Assembly (NCBI GenBank): GCA_951406725.2 | Contig: OX597821.1 | Span: 57,040,001-57,104,000 of the forward strand | DNA: 64,000 bases | Origin: Octopus vulgaris | Lineage: Eukaryota | Direction of reading: 5' to 3' | Part shown: positions 6,641 through 63,836 of the stretch, in pieces | Layout: every line of letters starts with the position of its first letter | How positions within the stretch are numbered: the stretch's first letter is position 1 | The notes under the pieces: model-generated | What the model was told of the DNA's origin: nothing | Seen by the model: the letters and a program-made list of their open reading frames with translations, nothing else | Databases searched by the model: none | Program-made: the position numbers and the translations under genes

Positions 6641-6669
6641 AATTTAATTGTTTTTCATGCTTTACTATA

Positions 6670-6702
6670 AGTTGAAAAAGTCGCAAAGACTGAAACCAGT
6701 AC
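6670..6702 (+). ncRNA. Minimal hammerhead ribozyme motif, family D, U3-A8 core variant
   Basis: AG-TTGAAAA-agtc gcaaa gact-GAAA-ccag-TA-C; the partner arm gives palindromic stem III ACCGGT and stem I AG/CT. Confidence 0.65.
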
Positions 6703-6762
6703 ATTTAACATTTTCTACCTGGTGTTATTTTCCTTATGTATATATATATATATATATATATA

Positions 6763-7148: not shown

Positions 7149-7235
7149 ATGTCAGCGTGTGTATATACCAATTTTTTTTCGTAATGAGATAAAAAACGAA
7201 GGCTAAGTAGATTTTAGAACATTTATAGATAGAAG

Positions 7236-7283
7236 GTCTTACAGCTGTTTCCAGGATATTTATTATATCCCTTCATCGGAGAC
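7236..7283 (-). ncRNA. Minimal hammerhead ribozyme motif, family A
   Basis: Exact reverse complement of 7668-7715. Confidence 0.75.
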
Positions 7284-7482
7284 GGTGATAGAGAGTAGTT
7301 AAGTAATAGTTAATTTAGATAGGATACAAAATAGAGAGTGAGGTGGAGGAAAGAAAATAGATGTGAGATATGTAGGGGTATTGAATTTGTAGATCCATTT
7401 TTTTAGGCAGAATGGTATACATGTAAGATTCAAATACTTTATGAGTAAAATCCAACAGTATTTAAAATTGGTCATTCCATGA

Positions 7483-8564
7483 CTCGATACTTGGAATGAC
7501 CAATTTTAAATACTGTTGGATTTTACTCATAAAGTATACTATTCTGCCTAAAAAACGGATCTACAAATTCAATACCCCTACACATCTATTTTCTTTCCTC
7601 CACTCCACCGCACTCTCTGTTTAGTGTCATATCTAAATTAACTATCACATAACTATTCTCTATCACCGTCTCCGATGAAGGGATATAATAAATATCCTGG
7701 AAACAGCTGTAAGACCTTCTATCTATAAATGTTCTAAAGTCTACTCAGCCTTGGTTTTTTTATCTCATCATGAAAAAGAAATTGTTATGTATATATTGTT
7801 ATATATAAATTGTTATATATATATATATATATGCATAAAGCACCAGAGTTGTTCGAAAACCGAGGTACTACTGTACTTGCAAAACTGTAACAATTTTCCA
7901 GTAAAACTTTTGAATAATTTTAAAAAAGAAACTGAAATAAAATAGCATTCTGAAAAATAGCATTCCAGTATTTAACAGACACTTTATTTTATCACCAGCG
8001 GAAAGATGAAAGGGAAAGTTCACCTGGGCGGGTTCTTAACCTGGGAATGTAAAGCACCGGAATAAATACCTCAAGGCATTTTCTGTATTGCTTTAATGAC
8101 TATACTAAACCCATCTCTTAGATTTTTTTTAATGTACAAACTAAATAAAGTATTTGGTACTGGTAAAATCCAAGGGAGGTTATAGCAAATATTTGTAGGA
8201 GCAGTTATTTCCCTTTAATACAAAATGATAAATGAATTTTGTTGAGAGGAGAGAGAGAAAGAATCATTATGTCAATATTGATGTAATGATTCTCCCTAGA
8301 CATAACAAAATTTGTTTCAACACATGAATTCACATAAAGAATCTTGCAAACCAGATACAAAAACGTAATAAGTGGATAAAACGTCAAAATGGTCAATTTT
8401 TAAATGCCATCATCAGGTGTGATTGTGTGGAGGCACATGCGTGGTTGTGTGGTACGAAGCTTGTTTCCCAGCCACATGGTTCCAGGTTCAGTTCCACTGT
8501 GTGGCACCTTGGACAAGTGTCTTCTACTCTAGCCTCAGGCTGACTGAAGCCTTGTGAGTAGATG
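7483..8564 (+). repeat. Segmental duplication copy 2 (of 1060-2122)
   Basis: Collinear identity; ORFs 1771-1953 and 8205-8396 are near-identical translations of the two copies. Confidence 0.95.
7668..7715 (+). ncRNA. Minimal hammerhead ribozyme motif, family A (U4C core variant, GUA site)
   Basis: Stem I GTCT/AGAC, core CCGATGA, stem II GGGATAT/ATATCCT, GAAA, palindromic stem III ACAGCTGT, cleavage triplet GTA. Confidence 0.75.
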
Positions 8565-8844: not shown

Positions 8845-9500
8845 GAAGGCAGACTGTATGATGCCAGTGTGCAGACAGCCAAACTACATGACAGTGAAAC
8901 AGAGGACATGTGAAGGCTTGAAAGATATCACTGGATGTGCAATATGAGTGTGAATGTACAACAGAGTGCAAGCACCTTGAGAGATAAACTGGGCATAAGA
9001 AGTATCAGGTTTAGTGTGCAAGGGAGATGACTGCGTTGGTATGGTCATGGGATGTATGTAGATGAGGACAGGTGTGTAAAGAAGTGCTGTAGAGGGAACC
9101 TGTGGAAGAGGTAGACCCAGGAAGAAATGAGATGCGGTGGTGAAGCATGATCTTTGAATATAGGGTCTCATGGAGGTGATGACAAGTGATCGAGACCTTT
9201 GGTGATTTGCTGTGCTTGAGAAGACTCGTGAAGCCAAGTGAGATTGTAGTCATGGTCGGTGCTGGGGACACAGAAAAGGTGCTTGTGTCACTGGCATGTA
9301 CAAGGCACCCAAGTTGGTGACATGTAAAAGCCACCAGTGCAGATGACTTGGGCAAGGCACCCAGTACACTCTTGGAGTGGTTGGTGTTAGGAAGGTATCC
9401 AGCCATAGGAACCAAATCCGATTAGAACCAAGAACAGCTCTCCGTCTTACCAGTTTCAGTTGAACCATCTAAGCCATGCCAGAAAATGATGATAATGATG
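8845..9500 (+). mobile_element. RTE LINE 3' fragment with tail, decayed
   Basis: Nucleotide similarity to 34640-35478 (GGCAGACTGTATGATGCC..GGAACCTGTGGAAGAGGTAGACCCAGGAAG..GCTGTGCTTGAGAAGAC). Confidence 0.85.
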
Positions 9501-12025: not shown

Positions 12026-12239
12026 GTTTGTGTGTGTGTGTGCGTGCATATGAGTGCAAGAGTTGGCTGTTAATTCAATCAAACATAAAGAATTTTAAAA
12101 AGTAGTTAAAAAAGCAATTAATCATTTCAAGAATAATTTCACCAAACCCGATAGTATAAAAGGTAGCAAAGCATGATAAAAGATAATAAGAGTAGAAATT
12201 AATATTATTTTTAGCATATAAGGGATCCACTGAGTGGTC

Positions 12240-12626
12240 TCTTCTCTTGTCTATATTTATAAAGCTAAAGTTGTTTTTGTGTGTGGTAGGTTTGGTAGCC
12301 TTCAACTAACTCCTCCGAGACCCTGCAGCGCAAGTTGACCAAAATTGAGAATATGATAGAAGAAGGCTTGATCTTCATTCTGTAGAAGATAAAATTCAAA
12401 TCGGACCATGTTAAGATCAAAAATTAGTTACATCAAAAAGGTACTTTTTTTCTATGAAAATCACTATTTTAAAGGATTTTTTGACTGCTGTGACACCATT
12501 TTTTGGTGTATTTCAACCAGAAAAATGTTCACTTAAAGAGAATAACAAGCTACATAATGCAAAATTTTTACTTTTCAAAAATTCCAATTCTAAAGGGTTG
12601 AAACAAACCCGAGCAACACCCGGTGA
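12240..12626 (+). mobile_element. Non-autonomous Helitron-like element, 3' end truncated
   Basis: 5' TCT..TATATTTATAAAGCT start and subterminal hairpin CCCGAGCAACACCCGG, similar to the CCCGGGCAACGCCGGG hairpin of animal Helitrons; the terminal CTAG is absent where the family B element begins. Confidence 0.55.
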
Positions 12627-12795
12627 TATATATATAAATTAGAAAAAAAACACCTTTCATCAATTCAAAATGAAAAATTAAATTACACCATCTAGAAAAT
12701 TACTGTAATAGAAATATTGAATATAAGATAAAAATACTAAACCGATAATTAAGTAATGTGCAAAAAAATAAATAAAACATATATATTTGGTAGAA

Positions 12796-12899
12796 TAACG
12801 ACAAGTGTTTCATGGCTATGTTTAAGAAATGATTAGAGTAGAAATAATAGTAGTAGTAGTAAAATCACTTCGATATAAATATAGCCACTCATCAGGTTA
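12796..12899 (-). ncRNA. Hammerhead ribozyme motif, family B
   Basis: Revcomp reads TAAC-CTGATGA-GTGGCTATATTT...AAACATAGCCAT-GAAA-CACTTG-TC-GTTA; stem I TAAC/GTTA is perfect. Confidence 0.85.
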
Positions 12900-12974
12900 A
12901 AAATAACTACAATAATAAAATAATTAATTAATAAATACACTTAAATAATCTTTTAAAACAGAAATATATTCTTT

Positions 12975-13015
<41 letters not shown>

Positions 13016-14172
13016 TACTAAATATACATAAAGGGAAAACTAAATGCAACACTTTATACTATATACATTAAATCAGATTATTAATTAATATATTTATTTA
13101 ATAAACATCCAAATACAGTCTAATACCCATTAAGCAATTAATACTAAAACCTTAAAATTATTAATATACACAATGCTAGTACAAGCCATAAATACTGGAA
13201 TCAAAATAAGAAATGGTTCAAATATAGAAACACTCATTAAATAAACTAACTATATAATTAATATATATGTAGTATCCATAGATATAATATATCACTCAAT
13301 AATAAAGTTGACTAAAATATCAATTAATATAAAATCTAATTTACTTAAATGTAATACTACTTAATAAATATACCACCTAATTATTAAATAATGTATTGTC
13401 TAACAAAATTAATTCTCAAATTAACTTGTAAGTAATATGTTAGATCCCTTTATAAAAAAATAATAATAAATCATTCTAAATAAATAGATATAATAATTAA
13501 AAACTATCATAACTTATAACTATCAATATATATAAAAAATGATAATATTTCAACAACAATAATAATAACAATAACAAACAAACCCAATATAATTCAAAAG
13601 ACAAATAATATTTATAAGCAAAAACCGTTACTTAACTTGTCAATGAAAATAATATAACTGAATTTTAAACATAAAAAAATATATAGGTCTTAGTGCTTAT
13701 AATAATTGAACGTGTGAAGACTTAGTGTAAATAAATATAATAAATTATCAATGAAAATGGTGATAACTATTTACTAATGAAAAGCAAGAAAAACATCTAA
13801 GCCCCATAAATTAAAGAAAGGTACGAAAAATATTAGAACAAATGAACAATACACTATGAAAACATTCAACTACAATCGACAGTCCACAACAAATCCAGTC
13901 AATAACAATAACAACAATCAAACTCAATATAATACAAAATCCAAATAACATTGATATACAAGCAACTTTACTAAGCTTATCGATTAAATTAATATATCTG
14001 AATTTTAAATGTATAAAAATAGGTCTTAGCGTCTTAATTAATATACCCAATGCTATTACTAGTTATAAATAATGCAATCAAATATAGGAAATGGTTCAAA
14101 TATACACAAACGCATTAATTAATCAATAATCTGATTTAATGTATATAGTTTTCACTTAATGTATATTTAGTA

Positions 14173-14233
<61 letters not shown>

Positions 14234-14344
14234 GATATATATAGATAGATATATATAGATATATATTTTAAAGAATATATTTCTATTTTAAAAGATTATT
14301 TACGTATATTTATTAATTAATTATTTTATATTCATAGTTATTTT

Positions 14345-14448
14345 TAACCTGATGAGTGGCTATATTTATATCGAAGTGATTTTACTACTACGACTACTAT
14401 TTTTACTATAATCATTTCTTAAATATAGCCACGAAACACGTGTCATTA
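14345..14448 (+). ncRNA. Hammerhead ribozyme motif, family B (canonical core, GUC site, long stem II)
   Basis: TAAC-CTGATGA-GTGGCTATATTT...AAATATAGCCAC-GAAA-CACGTG-TC-ATTA: 12-bp perfect basal stem II and palindromic stem III ACACGTGT. Confidence 0.9.
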
Positions 14449-14602
14449 TTCTACCAAATATATACGTTTTATTTTTTTTTTTTACACATTACTTAATAAT
14501 CGGTTTAGTATTTTTATCTTATATTCAATATTTCTATTATGTGTAATTTTCTAGATGGTGTAATTTAATTTTTCATTTTGAATTGATGAAAGGTGGTTTT
14601 GG

Positions 14603-15412
14603 TCGAGCATGACCTTTGAACGTTGGGTCTCACAGAGGCAATGACGGAAGACCGAGACGTCTGGAGATATGTTGTGACTGCGAAAACCCGACAAATAATG
14701 TGAGTTCAAAGCTGTTTCCTGCACCAGCTTCACATAGAAACCCCAGCCCTTCCAAAGTGCCTTGGATCGTAGGGCGACCTGCTGTGCTTGAGGAGACCTA
14801 TTGAGTCAAGTACGTCAGCATCAAAAATCAAATGGAAATTGTGGTTGCGATACTTGTGCTGGTAGCATGTAAAATGCACCATCCATACATGGCCAATGCC
14901 AGCGCTGCCATGACTGGTTTCCGTGCCAGTAACATGTAAAAAGCACCAACCATTCGTGGCTGTTGCCAGCCTACCCTGGCACCTGTGTTAGTGGCACCTA
15001 AAAAGCACCATCAGTACGTGACAGATACCAGCGCGCCTTGACTGGCTTCCATGTCAGTGGCACTTAATAAGCACCAACCATTTGTGGCCATTGCCAGCCT
15101 ACCCTGGCACATGTGACAGTGGCACGTAAAAAGCACCATACGTATGTGGCCGATACCAGCGCCACCATGACTGGCTTCCATGCTGGTGGCACATAAAAAG
15201 CACCAACCGATCGTGGCTATTGCCAGCCTCCCCTGGCACGTAACAAGCACCCACTACACTCACCAAGTGGTTGGCGTTAGGAAGGGCATCCAGCTGTAGA
15301 AACACTGCAAGATCAGACTGGAGCCTGGTGCAGCCTCCTGGCTTCCCAGAACCCGGTCGAACTGTCCAACCCATGCTACCATGGAAAACGGATGTTAAAC
15401 GATGATGATGAT
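14603..15412 (+). mobile_element. RTE-type 3' region with internal tandem array and (GAT)n tail
   Basis: Six alternating units of about 60-70 bp, each with TGGCACGTAAAAAGCACC, then the conserved tail. Confidence 0.85.
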
Positions 15413-18842: not shown

Positions 18843-19045
18843 TTAACAACAACAACAACAACATCAAAAAATACCTTAGGAATAAGAACCCAGGTTCGAA
18901 ATTTTCCCCAGACACCTGATGAAGGCTGGAGGGTATATCAGCGGAAACGTGTTAACAACAAAGAATGAGGACAAATATCCGTCAAATGTAAATAATATAA
19001 ATATTGTAAATAATGTACATAATCCCTCATCTCTTAAATATAGAA
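18170..19045. mobile_element. Foldback family C (tRNA-like head, (AAT)n, hammerhead); left arm mostly deleted, right arm interrupted by an insert at about 18318-18800
   Basis: Matches 33307-33781 and 43740-44205; hammerhead-like CTGATGA..GAAACGT at 18911-18953. Confidence 0.8.
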
Positions 19046-33300: not shown

Positions 33301-33306
33301 AATGAT

Positions 33307-33440
33307 ATTACATTTGACGGATATTTGTCTTCATCTTGTTTGTTGTTAGCACAATGTTTCAGCTGATATACCCTTCATCCTTCATCAGGTGTGTTGGGGA
33401 AATTTCAAACCTGGGTTCTCATTCCTAAGGTATTTTTCGA

Positions 33441-33487
<47 letters not shown>

Positions 33488-33781
33488 GTATCAGTATTAT
33501 TTATTCAGGTCACTGCCTGGAATCAAACTTGGAATCTTGAGATTAGTAGTGTGCCCATGGGCATATGGCATAGTGGTTAAGAGCGCGGGCTACTAACCCC
33601 AAGATTCTGAGTTTGATTCCAGGCAGTGACCTGAATAATAATAATAATAATAATAATATCAAAAAATACCTTAGGAATTTCCTCCAAGACACCTGATGAA
33701 GGCTGGAGGGTATATCAGCCAAAATGTTGTGTTAACAACAATCATGATGAGGACATATCTGTCAAATGTGAATAATGTACC
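33307..33781. mobile_element. Foldback family C (tRNA-like head, (AAT)n, hammerhead)
   Basis: Axis TGCCCATGGGCA near 33557; complete tRNA-like head on + at 33558-33631; hammerhead motifs at 33348-33393 (-) and 33688-33733 (+). Confidence 0.9.
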
Positions 33782-34639: not shown

Positions 34640-35478
34640 AAGAGTGAAAGGCAGACTGTATGATGCCTGTGTGTGAACAGCTATGCTATATGGCAGTGGT
34701 ATATGGGATGTGACAGCTGAAGACAAGTGTAGGCTTGAAAGAAATGAAGGCAGTATGCTTTTTTGGATGTGCAATATTAGTGTGCATGTTCGACAGAGTG
34801 TAAGCATGTTTAGAGATAAGTTAGGCATAAGAGGAATCAGATGTGGTGTGCAAGAGAGACAACTGTGCTGGTATAGTCATGTGATGTATATGGACGAGGA
34901 CAGCTGTATAAAGAAGTGCTGTTCTTTAACTGTGGAGGGAACCTGTGGAAGAGGTAAACCCAGGAAGATATGGGACAAGATGGTGAAGCATGATCTTCAA
35001 ATTTTGGGTCACACTAAGGCAATGACTAGTGACCGAGACTTTTGGCGCTTTGCTGTGCTTGAGAAGACCCAGCAAGCCAAGTGAAATCATAGTCCTGGCT
35101 GATGCTGGTGTCATGTAACTGGAACATAAAAAGTACCTTTTGAGCATTGGGCCTCACAGAGGTAAAGTGGCCGGTGGTATGTGAAAAGCATCTTTTGAGT
35201 TGTTGGGCCTCATGAAGGCAATGAGGAATAACTGAGACCTTTGGCATTATGTCATGCTTGAGAAGACTCATCAAGCCAAGTAAAATTGCAGTCATGGCAG
35301 ATACTGGTGTCTCGCAAATGGCACCCGTGCTGGTGGCACATAAAAGCACCCATTACACTCTTGGAGTGGTTGGCATTAGGAAGGGCATCCAGTTGAAGAA
35401 ACCATGCCAAATCAGACTGGAGTCTGGTGCAGCCTTCCAACTTACCAGCCTCAATCAAACCGTCCAACCCATGCCAGG
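34640..35478 (+). mobile_element. RTE LINE 3' end: ORF C-terminus (to 35084) and 3' UTR
   Basis: MLYGSGIWDVTAEDKCRLERNEGSMLFWMC..RQLCWYSHV..GRGKPRKIW is the RTE C-terminal region; it runs into the shared tail. Confidence 0.92.
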
Positions 35479-43500: not shown

Positions 43501-43739
43501 CTGTTTTGGCACCGCCCATTTGGTGTTGCTGATTTGATGTTGACTCATTTGACATCAGATATTTTATTGTTCCTCTCATCTTAATATTTATCTCATTTAA
43601 GGCAGGCAAGCTGGCAGAACTGTTAGCACGCTGGGCAAAATGCTTAGCAGCCTTTCATCTGTCTTTACGTTCTAATTTCAAATACTGTCAATGTCGACTT
43701 TGCCATTCATTCTTTCAGGATCGATAAAATAAATACTAT

Positions 43740-44003
43740 TATTTACATTATTTACATTTGACAGATATTTGTCCTCATCTTGTTTGCTGTTAACACAACA
43801 TTTCGGCTGATACACCCTCCAACCTTCGTCAGGTGTCTTGGGGAAATTTCAAACCTGGGTTTTCATTCCTATGGTAGTGTTCGATATTATTATTATTATT
43901 CAGATCACTGCCTGGAATCAAACTCAGAATCTTGAGGTTAGTAGCCCGCGCTCTTAACCACTACGCCATATACCCACGGGCATATGGCGTAGTGGTTAAG
44001 TGA

Positions 44004-44039
<36 letters not shown>

Positions 44040-44205
44040 CATCGAAAAATACCTTAGGAATGAGAACCCAGGTTTGAAATTTCCTCAAGATACCTGATGA
44101 AGGCTGGAGGGTGTATCAGCTGAAATGTTCTGTTATCAACAAACAAGATGAGGACAAATATCTGTCAAATATAAATAATGTACATAATTCCTCATCTCTT
44201 AAATA
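43740..44205. mobile_element. Foldback family C, best-preserved copy, inserted in a family 2 SINE
   Basis: Axis TACCCACGGGCA near 43976; complete tRNA-like head on - at about 43903-43975; hammerheads at 43792-43837 (-) and 44089-44134 (+). The host SINE resumes at AAAATAAATAC (44209), repeating 43726-43736. Confidence 0.9.
43792..43837 (-). ncRNA. Minimal hammerhead ribozyme motif, family C
   Basis: Revcomp GACAC-CTGACGA-aGGTTGG..TCAGCC-GAAA-TG-TT-GTGTT. Stem III is CG at 18948, TG here and CA at 33355, implying ancestral ACGT with CpG decay. Confidence 0.75.
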
Positions 44206-62494: not shown

Positions 62495-62795
62495 ATTGTA
62501 TCTCGGGAGTGTTTAAAGCCTTATTACTTAACACACTCACTGGTTCGATTTCCACTCATTTATTTTTATTTGCTAGAATTTTTCTTGTTTCTTGGAACCT
62601 CTTCAGTAGTCATGAATAGAGTCAACGACTATTGAAGAGGTTGCAAGAAACAATGAAAATTTTAGAAAAGAAAAAAAAGAAGTAAATGAGTGGAAATCGG
62701 ACTGGTGAGTGTGTTAATTAATAAGGCACTAAAACAGAATGACTCTCCCCAGACACAAGAAAATATGCTTCAACACACAAACTCACATACAAAAT

Positions 62796-62800
<5 letters not shown>
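62495..62800. mobile_element. Foldback family E
   Basis: Arms are reverse complements around 62612-62626; cores CTGAAGA (62600-62606, minus) and TTGAAGA (62632-62638, plus). Confidence 0.85.
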
Positions 62801-62866
<66 letters not shown>

Positions 62867-62869
<3 letters not shown>

Positions 62870-63836
62870 GGTTCAGTGCTTGGGCCCTTGTTGTTCTTAG
62901 TCTTCATAAATGACTTGCCCGACGACCTCACGCAACACACCCTTCTATTTGCCGACGATATCAAACTGGTCGCTCCTCGCGGTAGTATAGAGGATCTTCG
63001 TCGATGCCTCCACCAAATTTGGAAGTGGTCTAACGATTGGGACCTGTGTCTGAACGTGTCAAAGTGCTGTCATCTGCCTGTCGGCTCTACTCCTGCAACT
63101 CAACTTGATTTCGAGCCAGGTCGTCTGCTGCTGGAGAGGACCGATCAGGTAAAGGACCTGGGTATCTTGGTGGATTCCTCCTTTTCGCCTTCGGCCCAGT
63201 GCGTCCATGCTGCCAACAAAGCGCGCGGAATTCTGTTTTTGATTCGACCGTCATTCGGAATGCTCACAGCAGCCATATTCCTACCACTCTATGTCACGCT
63301 GGTGAGACCCATATTGGAGTATGGGATTCAAGCCTCTTCTCCTTATCTCCTCAAAGACATACAGCATCTCGAAAGAGTCCAGAGGCTGGCTACCCGCATG
63401 GTTCATGGTCTCAAAAATTTGTCCTACGAAGAAAGGCTGAGGACGCTCGACCTTTATTCTCTTGAAAAACGCCGCCACCGTGGTGATCTCATTCTCGCCC
63501 ACAACATCATAAGCGGGAAGTGTAACCTCTCGAAAGAGCTGTTCTTCACTCCTGCTCCGGAGCGTCGGCTGCGGGGTCATTCCGAAAAGCTCTACCTGCG
63601 ACGATTTCATCTCAATCGAAGGAGAGGAGCTTTCTCCGTCTGGGTTGCGGATCCGTGGAACAAGCTGCCAGACGAGATGGTGAAGATGCCGACGACCGCT
63701 TTGTTCAAAGCCTCCCTGGACCTCAAGTGGCCTGAACTCTTTACATGAACACCACCCTGTACTTAACTCCATGTCCCCCTACATGGCCTTGCTATTTGCT
63801 TTTGAGCCAAATTAACTAACTAACTAACTAACTAAC
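62867..63836 (+). mobile_element. 5'-truncated CR1-clade LINE with open RT C-terminal ORF (to 63748) and (AACT)n tail
   Basis: QGSVLGPLLFLVFINDLPD..LLFADDIKL..YVTLVRPILEY..LERVQRLATR..LEKRRHRGDLI..WNKLP are CR1 RT and C-terminal motifs, with no stops. The upstream part of ORF 62690-63748 is read-through from a foldback arm and microsatellite. Confidence 0.95.

Follow-up and report, generated by a model that had tools for sequence, protein, structure and literature searches.

The 64,000-nt stretch of DNA analysed here (the window) contains an AT-rich foldback element of about 2 kb, the two inverted arms of which each carry a type I hammerhead motif. The features of the element and its margins, in window coordinates, are as follows.

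12626..12636, no strand: left-end (TA)n tract, probably the insertion target, from sequence
12637..13089, minus strand: left arm, an inverted 5′-truncated copy of the element 3′ end, from alignment
12790..12910, minus strand: left type I hammerhead (C3 12895, C17 12800)
12978..13011, no strand: internal (TA)n of the left arm, at an equivalent position in both arms
13090..14117, plus strand: spacer, A-rich (49% A, 21% GC) and non-coding, from composition and the lack of a protein match
13160..13268, plus strand: repeat A, 80% like 14037-14146, its partner extending into the start of the right arm
13557..13704, plus strand: repeat B, 77% like 13900-14043, from alignment
13900..14146, plus strand: second copies of repeats B and A, side by side, from alignment
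14118..14600, plus strand: right arm, the element 3′ end (pLTR-like part), shortened by ~9 nt where it meets the flank
14177..14266, no strand: (TA)n-rich tract inside the right arm, at the equivalent position
14345..14448, plus strand: type I hammerhead of the right arm (core halves 14349-14355 and 14433-14436)
14356-14368/14420-14432, plus strand: right helix II, basal part, 13 bp
14373-14381/14410-14418, plus strand: right upper helix, 9 bp, beyond a 4x1 bulge
14600..14690, plus strand: flank on the right, the 3′ part of a high-copy LINE-like repeat unrelated to the element, from matches within the window

Pairwise alignment of the arms (12646-13030 and 14214-14600, inverted) gave 91.5% identity over 388 columns, and homology runs further inward, as far as 13089 and 14118, on the other side of an internal (TA)n tract. 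The arms point outwards, with one hammerhead per strand, 1.45 kb apart, and GC content across the whole element is 19.6%; the alignment and the composition bear out the foldback of ~2 kb, AT-rich and with inverted arms, that an initial annotation had described. That annotation placed the element at 12635..14600, of which the right limit stands and the left is corrected to ~12637. The element is bounded by (TA)n on the left and by the LINE fragment on the right. The final ~9 nt of the element end are present in the left arm and missing from the right arm, which is clipped and joined to the LINE-like repeat through a short sequence shared by both (14585-14606), with loose contig ends before 14600/14606; this junction suggests a microhomology-mediated join or a later deletion. 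The LINE-like repeat, which we take to be RTE-like, has 73% matches at 9138-9228 and 34981-35070. No target-site duplication (TSD) was found, because the left flank is not a continuation of this repeat; that flank (12230-12625) resembles a repeat of Helitron/Helentron type, non-autonomous, which stops close to the (TA)n target. A tail of 30-40 nt was likewise not found, the two ends differing by only 9 nt, which is explained by the clipping of the right junction.

Both hammerheads retain the core CUGANGA ... GAAA and a UH cleavage site, with C3 at 14349 (plus strand) and 12895 (minus strand), and the core halves are separated by 77 nt. In the right arm, the helix at the base of stem II, previously read as a perfect 12-bp helix, comprises 13 bp, and beyond the bulge and the upper helix it is capped by a 28-nt loop containing (TAC)n; loop III is a perfect 8-nt palindrome (14436-14443), and the cleavage site is GUC with C17 at 14444 and a predicted cut after 14444, as the annotation had it. 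Damage is distributed over both arms. In the left arm, helix I is unbroken (4 bp, an internal loop, and an outer 4 bp), helix II has a G10.1-U11.1 wobble in place of the G10.1-C11.1 foot found in the right arm, together with an A.C mismatch, and the loop III palindrome is broken. In the right arm, helix I forms three of its four pairs, the closing pair being mismatched at 14445 (C2.1.A1.1), and there are further changes in outer helix I. The earlier view that each arm carries a different single lesion therefore gives way to several lesions per arm; the left-arm lesion in the stem III region falls on the dimer palindrome and spares both monomer pairs of helix III.

The proposal of a canonical hammerhead with a long stem II held up, with a full type I core, helices of 13 and 9 bp, and a descriptor (helix I, core, helix II of at least 6 bp, and UH site) that matched once in 13090-14600 and in 0 of 3,000 dinucleotide shuffles of it. 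The folding energy of 14340-14455 has a z of −4.2. With E values up to 10 allowed, neither arm matched a hammerhead family in Rfam; probably the long helix II puts the motif outside the Rfam hammerhead models. Since loop 2 sits 22 bp from the core, the usual loop 1-loop 2 geometry is unlikely, and the 4x1 bulge that follows the 13-bp helix is a possible substitute for that contact.

Contigs from public runs were aligned to 14262-14640 at 80% likeness in four runs with three organism labels. The query 14262-14600 returned 24 runs under four organism labels, of which 20 contain part of it and none at least half of its 31 words; the four runs used for alignment are among these 24. The aligned contigs numbered 566, 2,539, 786, and 65 (labels A, B, D, and A), some of them lying on the 40-nt LINE flank; most of the aligned family contigs are 90-99% alike, and 30 of 30 bins were covered in the three larger runs. 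The family is thus high-copy. Exact patterns of 20 and 25 nt had no match in viral or metagenome contigs. Summed contig depth, which is not a copy number and which also falls wherever the studied copy departs from the family majority, is highest over 14535-14599 (~65 nt), intermediate over the hammerhead, and lowest on the 5′ side. Past 14600, 36 contigs in run X2 and 13 in run X9 go on with T-rich sequence, the first 9 nt of which match the extra end of the left arm (exactly in X2), after which they become A/T-rich and heterogeneous (agreement 0.58-0.59); because they match for 9 nt and then diverge, the family 3′ end lies ~9 nt beyond 14600. The hammerhead accordingly stands ~160 nt from the family 3′ end (156 nt from the cut to 14600, with the end ~9 nt further).

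Variation among the family copies tracks the RNA fold. Variants were called at 7% or more and counted from the best 40 of 44 table rows, and the following statements apply to the variants so listed. N7 was the sole core position to vary (35, 32, and 23% in X1, X2, and X9), and the unpaired variants lay at 14342 in the loop of helix I, at 14372 in the bulge (46-75%), at five loop II positions, and at 14439 in loop III. The helices varied at 14359 (4-10%) and at the loop-closing 14410 (22-41%), both of which disrupt pairs, and no compensatory change was seen. Variable sites made up 2 of 66 core and helix positions against 9 of 44 in N7, the bulge, and the loops (p 0.006, with 14445 omitted as private to the studied copy), and against 4 of 16 unpaired positions outside the (TAC)n loop (p 0.012); for the 3′ flank the comparison was 3 of 66 against 23 of 92 (p 0.0004), the flank count being inflated by thin depth at 14483-14520. 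The p values are rough, as the sites are not independent and TAC slippage inflates the loop count. Among the family copies, the hammerhead is better kept than flank and loops. At 14445, G accounts for 92-100% of depth in four of four runs and is also the letter of the left arm, so the right-arm mismatch there is a private lesion.

The same contigs bear on the origin of the arms. At 14505, 14508, 14513, and 14526, both arms share minority letters from which 46-100% of the depth differs in the three larger runs, and at 14526 the letter of both arms is absent from 97-99% of the aligned family depth; these shared minority letters indicate that a single minority-subfamily template gave rise to both arms. 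Over 14270-14595 the arms differ in 23 columns, 3 of them CpG-type changes, and most of these differences would have arisen after the copying of that template. In two contigs, opposite strands are joined at positions other than those of the studied copy (14284 to 14434 in X2; 14406 to 14548 in X9), which suggests that inversions recur in the family with variable breakpoints. An identical 74-nt go-back joint (14308-14381) was also seen in one contig each of X2 and X9, under two organism labels; it amounts to a small tandem duplication spanning the 5′ half of the hammerhead.

The 3′-proximal hammerhead and the inverted, 5′-truncated, head-to-head copy point to a truncated or non-autonomous copy of Penelope-like element (PLE) type, and the locus is probably a decayed member of a high-copy retroelement family of Penelope-like kind, inserted in a non-coding or 5′-truncated form. 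An inverted 5′-truncated copy beside the 5′ end is described as typical of PLE insertions (PMC8557442), and head-to-head copies as the commonest PLE form, some of them lacking TSDs (PMC3846280). Pairs of hammerheads on opposite strands, with palindromic loop III, are also on record (PMC4209133). In most families listed in the supplement of PMC8557442, the motif of Hydra-clade PLEs lies about 100-200 nt from the end, and (TA)n targets are given; PLEs recorded from Octopus include (TA)n-targeting families of Hydra and Naiad type (PMC8557442, PMC13282606).

Coding sequence gave no such link. Neither a reverse transcriptase (RT) nor a GIY-YIG trace was found by Pfam in six frames, PHROGs in three frames, phmmer in part of one frame, or a word search in one frame; for the reverse frames and the third forward one, the comparison was with profile libraries only. 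The tie to PLE enzymes is therefore architectural only, by analogy. YIG-like short words made a coding remnant in the spacer a candidate, which was rejected after null results from Pfam, PHROGs, phmmer on 219 residues, and the second-frame word search; the one Pfam match in the spacer was FTA4 (E 0.02, short of the cut-off). Assignment to an autonomous PLE, or to a PLE clade, was likewise dropped, no telomerase-like RT or GIY-YIG open reading frame being found. The annotation had suggested a possible long non-coding PLE derivative, with translation of consensus copies as a check for RT/GIY-YIG remnants; the PLE-type inverted structure and the non-coding spacer agree with the first part, while in this copy the profile, phmmer, and word searches gave nothing significant for the enzymes. 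The longest open frames in the spacer were matched in 18-46 of 500 shuffles. An ATG lies within the hammerhead core and is abolished by the N7 variant, and the family variant at 14410 (22-41%) removes the sole stop of an 84-codon hydrophobic frame (14352-14546); as a gene, this frame through the hammerhead was rejected, its length being equalled in 32 of 500 and 97 of 500 controls. A mitochondrial insert was also discarded, since three ARAGORN modes found no tRNA.

The spacer contains real internal repeats, as first noted: 13160-13268 against 14037-14146 scores 106 (shuffle maximum 38) and 13557-13704 against 13900-14043 scores 125 (shuffle maximum 52; 200 shuffles each). In each of the three frames, most differences between the two copies of repeat B are non-synonymous. 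Windows of 120 nt across the spacer are unstructured save one at z −2.0. The ribozyme had been called about the only GC-containing structured island of the element; 13800-13899 is richer (32 vs. 29% GC) yet unstructured (z +1.4 and +1.6), so the ribozyme is not alone in its raised GC. The spacer is probably the upstream body of a longer copy. An alternative that keeps the PLE mechanism is that solo pLTR-like ends captured host or otherwise unrelated AT-rich DNA, as in Adineta Pen1; captured spacers of 0.9-1.5 kb have been described (PMC3846280), the spacer is non-coding and unstructured, and there is no second copy of it within the window. Against capture, the partner of repeat A (14037-14146) overlaps the arm start at 14118, and base composition is continuous from spacer into arm. 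As the repeat runs into the arm, a spacer that is element body with old internal duplications is favoured, and capture appears unlikely.

Among known systems, the closest resemblance is to the hammerheads of Hydra-clade PLEs (Penelope-1_NV, Penelope-17_HM, Penelope-13_HM, and Hydra-1_Obim; Craig et al., 2021, PMC8557442), with which the studied motif shares the type I core, a short self-complementary helix III, the 3′-proximal position, the probable (TA)n target, and the AT-rich context. According to the same source, helix II of Penelope-1_NV begins with the identical four base pairs, with no extra base after A9, and Penelope-13_HM has a 5′-truncated inverted copy. Hydra-clade elements differ in having helix II of 3-7 bp with a loop of 3-10 nt, against 22 bp over 77 nt here, and in encoding RT and endonuclease, which the studied copy does not (PMC8557442). 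Three short motifs found no match in the supplement of PMC8557442, in which line breaks could mask one. Adineta Pen2, Pen5, and Pen6 also have head-to-head inverted 3′ ends (pLTRs), some without TSDs (PMC3846280); relative to the inverted-pLTR Penelope/Poseidon elements as described, no 30-40 nt tail was seen in the studied copy and its hammerheads are 1.45 kb apart. The min-hammerheads of schistosome Cercyon are similar in forming opposite-strand pairs, 100-700 bp apart, with palindromic loop III, and differ in that their helix II spans 7-8 bp and A9 is followed by an extra base (PMC4209133). Separated core halves are listed for the spike-moss PLE-X1 (two motifs, about 50 nt; PMC8557442 File S2) and for Naiad “half-core” cases (35-50 nt; PMC8557442 methods); the insert here is longer (77 nt), mostly paired, and set in an otherwise canonical motif. 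The 77-nt, 22-bp helix II exceeds that of any row listed in PMC8557442 File S2, and the literature covered (outside Repbase, Dfam, subscription papers, and the supplements of other papers) describes neither this family nor so long a PLE helix II. The layout is ordinary for PLEs, and what is new is confined to the unusual length of the second helix.

The non-coding sequence, low GC, and type I hammerhead in an animal genome are equally features of non-LTR retrozymes, which are present in molluscs (PMC7229834) and have been argued to derive from PLEs (bioRxiv 10.64898/2026.07.22.740005), so that the locus could be a rearranged, inverted remnant of a family that has tandem monomers and a circular RNA intermediate; the go-back joint seen in two runs fits such a history. 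Retrozymes as described form head-to-tail arrays of 150-450 bp monomers (PMC7229834), whereas the studied copy is an inverted pair around a 1-kb spacer, with no head-to-tail monomer and neither a second hammerhead nor arm homology within the spacer, and the family stops at a defined end, past which the sequence is heterogeneous. We give this origin little credence. Still less probable is a foldback or terminal-inverted-repeat DNA transposon, or a MITE, that acquired a hammerhead in its terminal repeats at an earlier time: the long inverted ends and AT-rich interior would suit it, and internal-deletion derivatives would likewise make the terminal ~65 nt the deepest. A DNA-mobilised element, however, has no need of the constraint that tracks the RNA fold, no TSD is present and the flanks are not contiguous, and the inversion joints fall at varied positions. 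A chance motif in low-complexity AT-rich DNA, to which the lack of an Rfam hammerhead match might point, has a negligible probability and is refuted by the shuffles (0 of 3,000) and by the family variant pattern, with N7 the sole varying core position among the variants listed.

The PLE-type layout is not confined to this element. Three further outward-pointing hammerhead foldbacks, of two other families, occur in the window (33306-33774, 43738-44188, and 7187-7765), which makes such a layout common in the source genome. The repeats that flank the element resemble those of octopus. Those at 33306-33774 and 43738-44188 belong to a second family of small head-to-head foldbacks with (AAT)n tracts, MITE-like in size and PLE-type in layout; its hammerheads (33388, minus; 33693, plus; 43832, minus; 44094, plus; and a solo copy at 18916, plus) are short, with an extra base after A9 and 21 nt between the core halves. 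The foldback at 7187-7765, of a third family, has an identical hammerhead-like motif in both arms, with U4 changed to C and a palindromic loop III. By eye, a possible decayed short hammerhead at 6660-6760 is followed by an end like that of the studied family and then by (TA)n. An open frame of 352 codons lies at 62690-63745; its later part resembles a LINE reverse transcriptase over the C-terminal half. In Rfam searches of the whole window, microRNA models on simple repeats dominate among the 150 of 236 matches listed.

Whether the motif could cleave was assessed from predicted folds. The hammerhead fold lies 8.8 kcal/mol above the monomer minimum in the right arm and 4.9 kcal/mol above it in the left; with the majority letter at 14445, the right-arm value is 6.7 kcal/mol. 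The predicted intermolecular duplex of the loop III palindrome has −10.3 kcal/mol in the right arm and −1.1 kcal/mol in the left. The predicted fold of a read-through RNA has 398 of the 483 bases of the right arm, the core included, paired to the left arm. The annotation had put the locus forward as the best candidate for an active ribozyme, a ranking that these energies, the damage to both arms, and the placement of the hammerheads on opposite strands argue against: with several lesions per arm, opposite strands, and read-through RNA that folds arm to arm, the studied genomic copy is probably catalytically poor, or silent, as a ribozyme. For the family master, on the other hand, activity of the putative ribozyme as a dimer is plausible from these models. 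Palindromic loop III is reported to favour dimers, with low activity in vitro (PMC4209133, PMC6765202), and in the sole PLE reconstituted in vitro, as reported, the hammerhead cleaved only with protein and was dispensable for insertion (PMC11167929). Given the palindrome duplex, the unfavourable monomer minimum, and the PLE literature on dimers, we consider it fairly likely that the master ribozyme worked as a dimer in tandem precursors.

Under the preferred reading of a decayed PLE-type insertion, we infer that the RT/GIY-YIG endonuclease of an autonomous PLE would have nicked the (TA)n site and that a single RNA template would have been copied twice, each time from its 3′ end, to give 13090-14600 as the long copy and 13089-12637 as the short, inverted one, joined 5′ end to 5′ end. 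Selection would have kept the hammerhead intact in the master RNA, which would most likely have cleaved after GUC in dimeric form, held together by the 8-nt palindrome of loop III and perhaps with the assistance of protein, and so have processed tandem precursors. The long helix II would be a tolerated extension atop an ordinary G10.1-C11.1 base. The studied copy has drifted by about 4% per arm, and its read-through transcription would yield ~400 bp of double-stranded RNA. A bolder and unlikely possibility is that the family is a wholly non-coding PLE parasite, 1.5 kb or longer and 80% AT, in which the 22-bp helix II is a functional module, specifically one that makes a replacement tertiary contact via the 4x1 bulge, acts as a folding switch against core-sequestering pairing, or docks a PLE protein; it would then represent a structural class of animal hammerhead missed by short-helix descriptors and by Rfam.

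In itself, the locus is a decayed repeat of an ordinary kind; it belongs to a high-copy PLE-type family that retains a canonical hammerhead, one with 77 nt in its helix II region and missed by Rfam. That spacing also falls outside a published core search that permits 7-17 nt between the halves (PMC8557442 methods). Because the 77-nt form escapes both, some PLE families scored as hammerhead-less may possess one, and the family offers a natural construct for asking whether the length of helix II affects dimeric or protein-assisted cleavage in PLEs.
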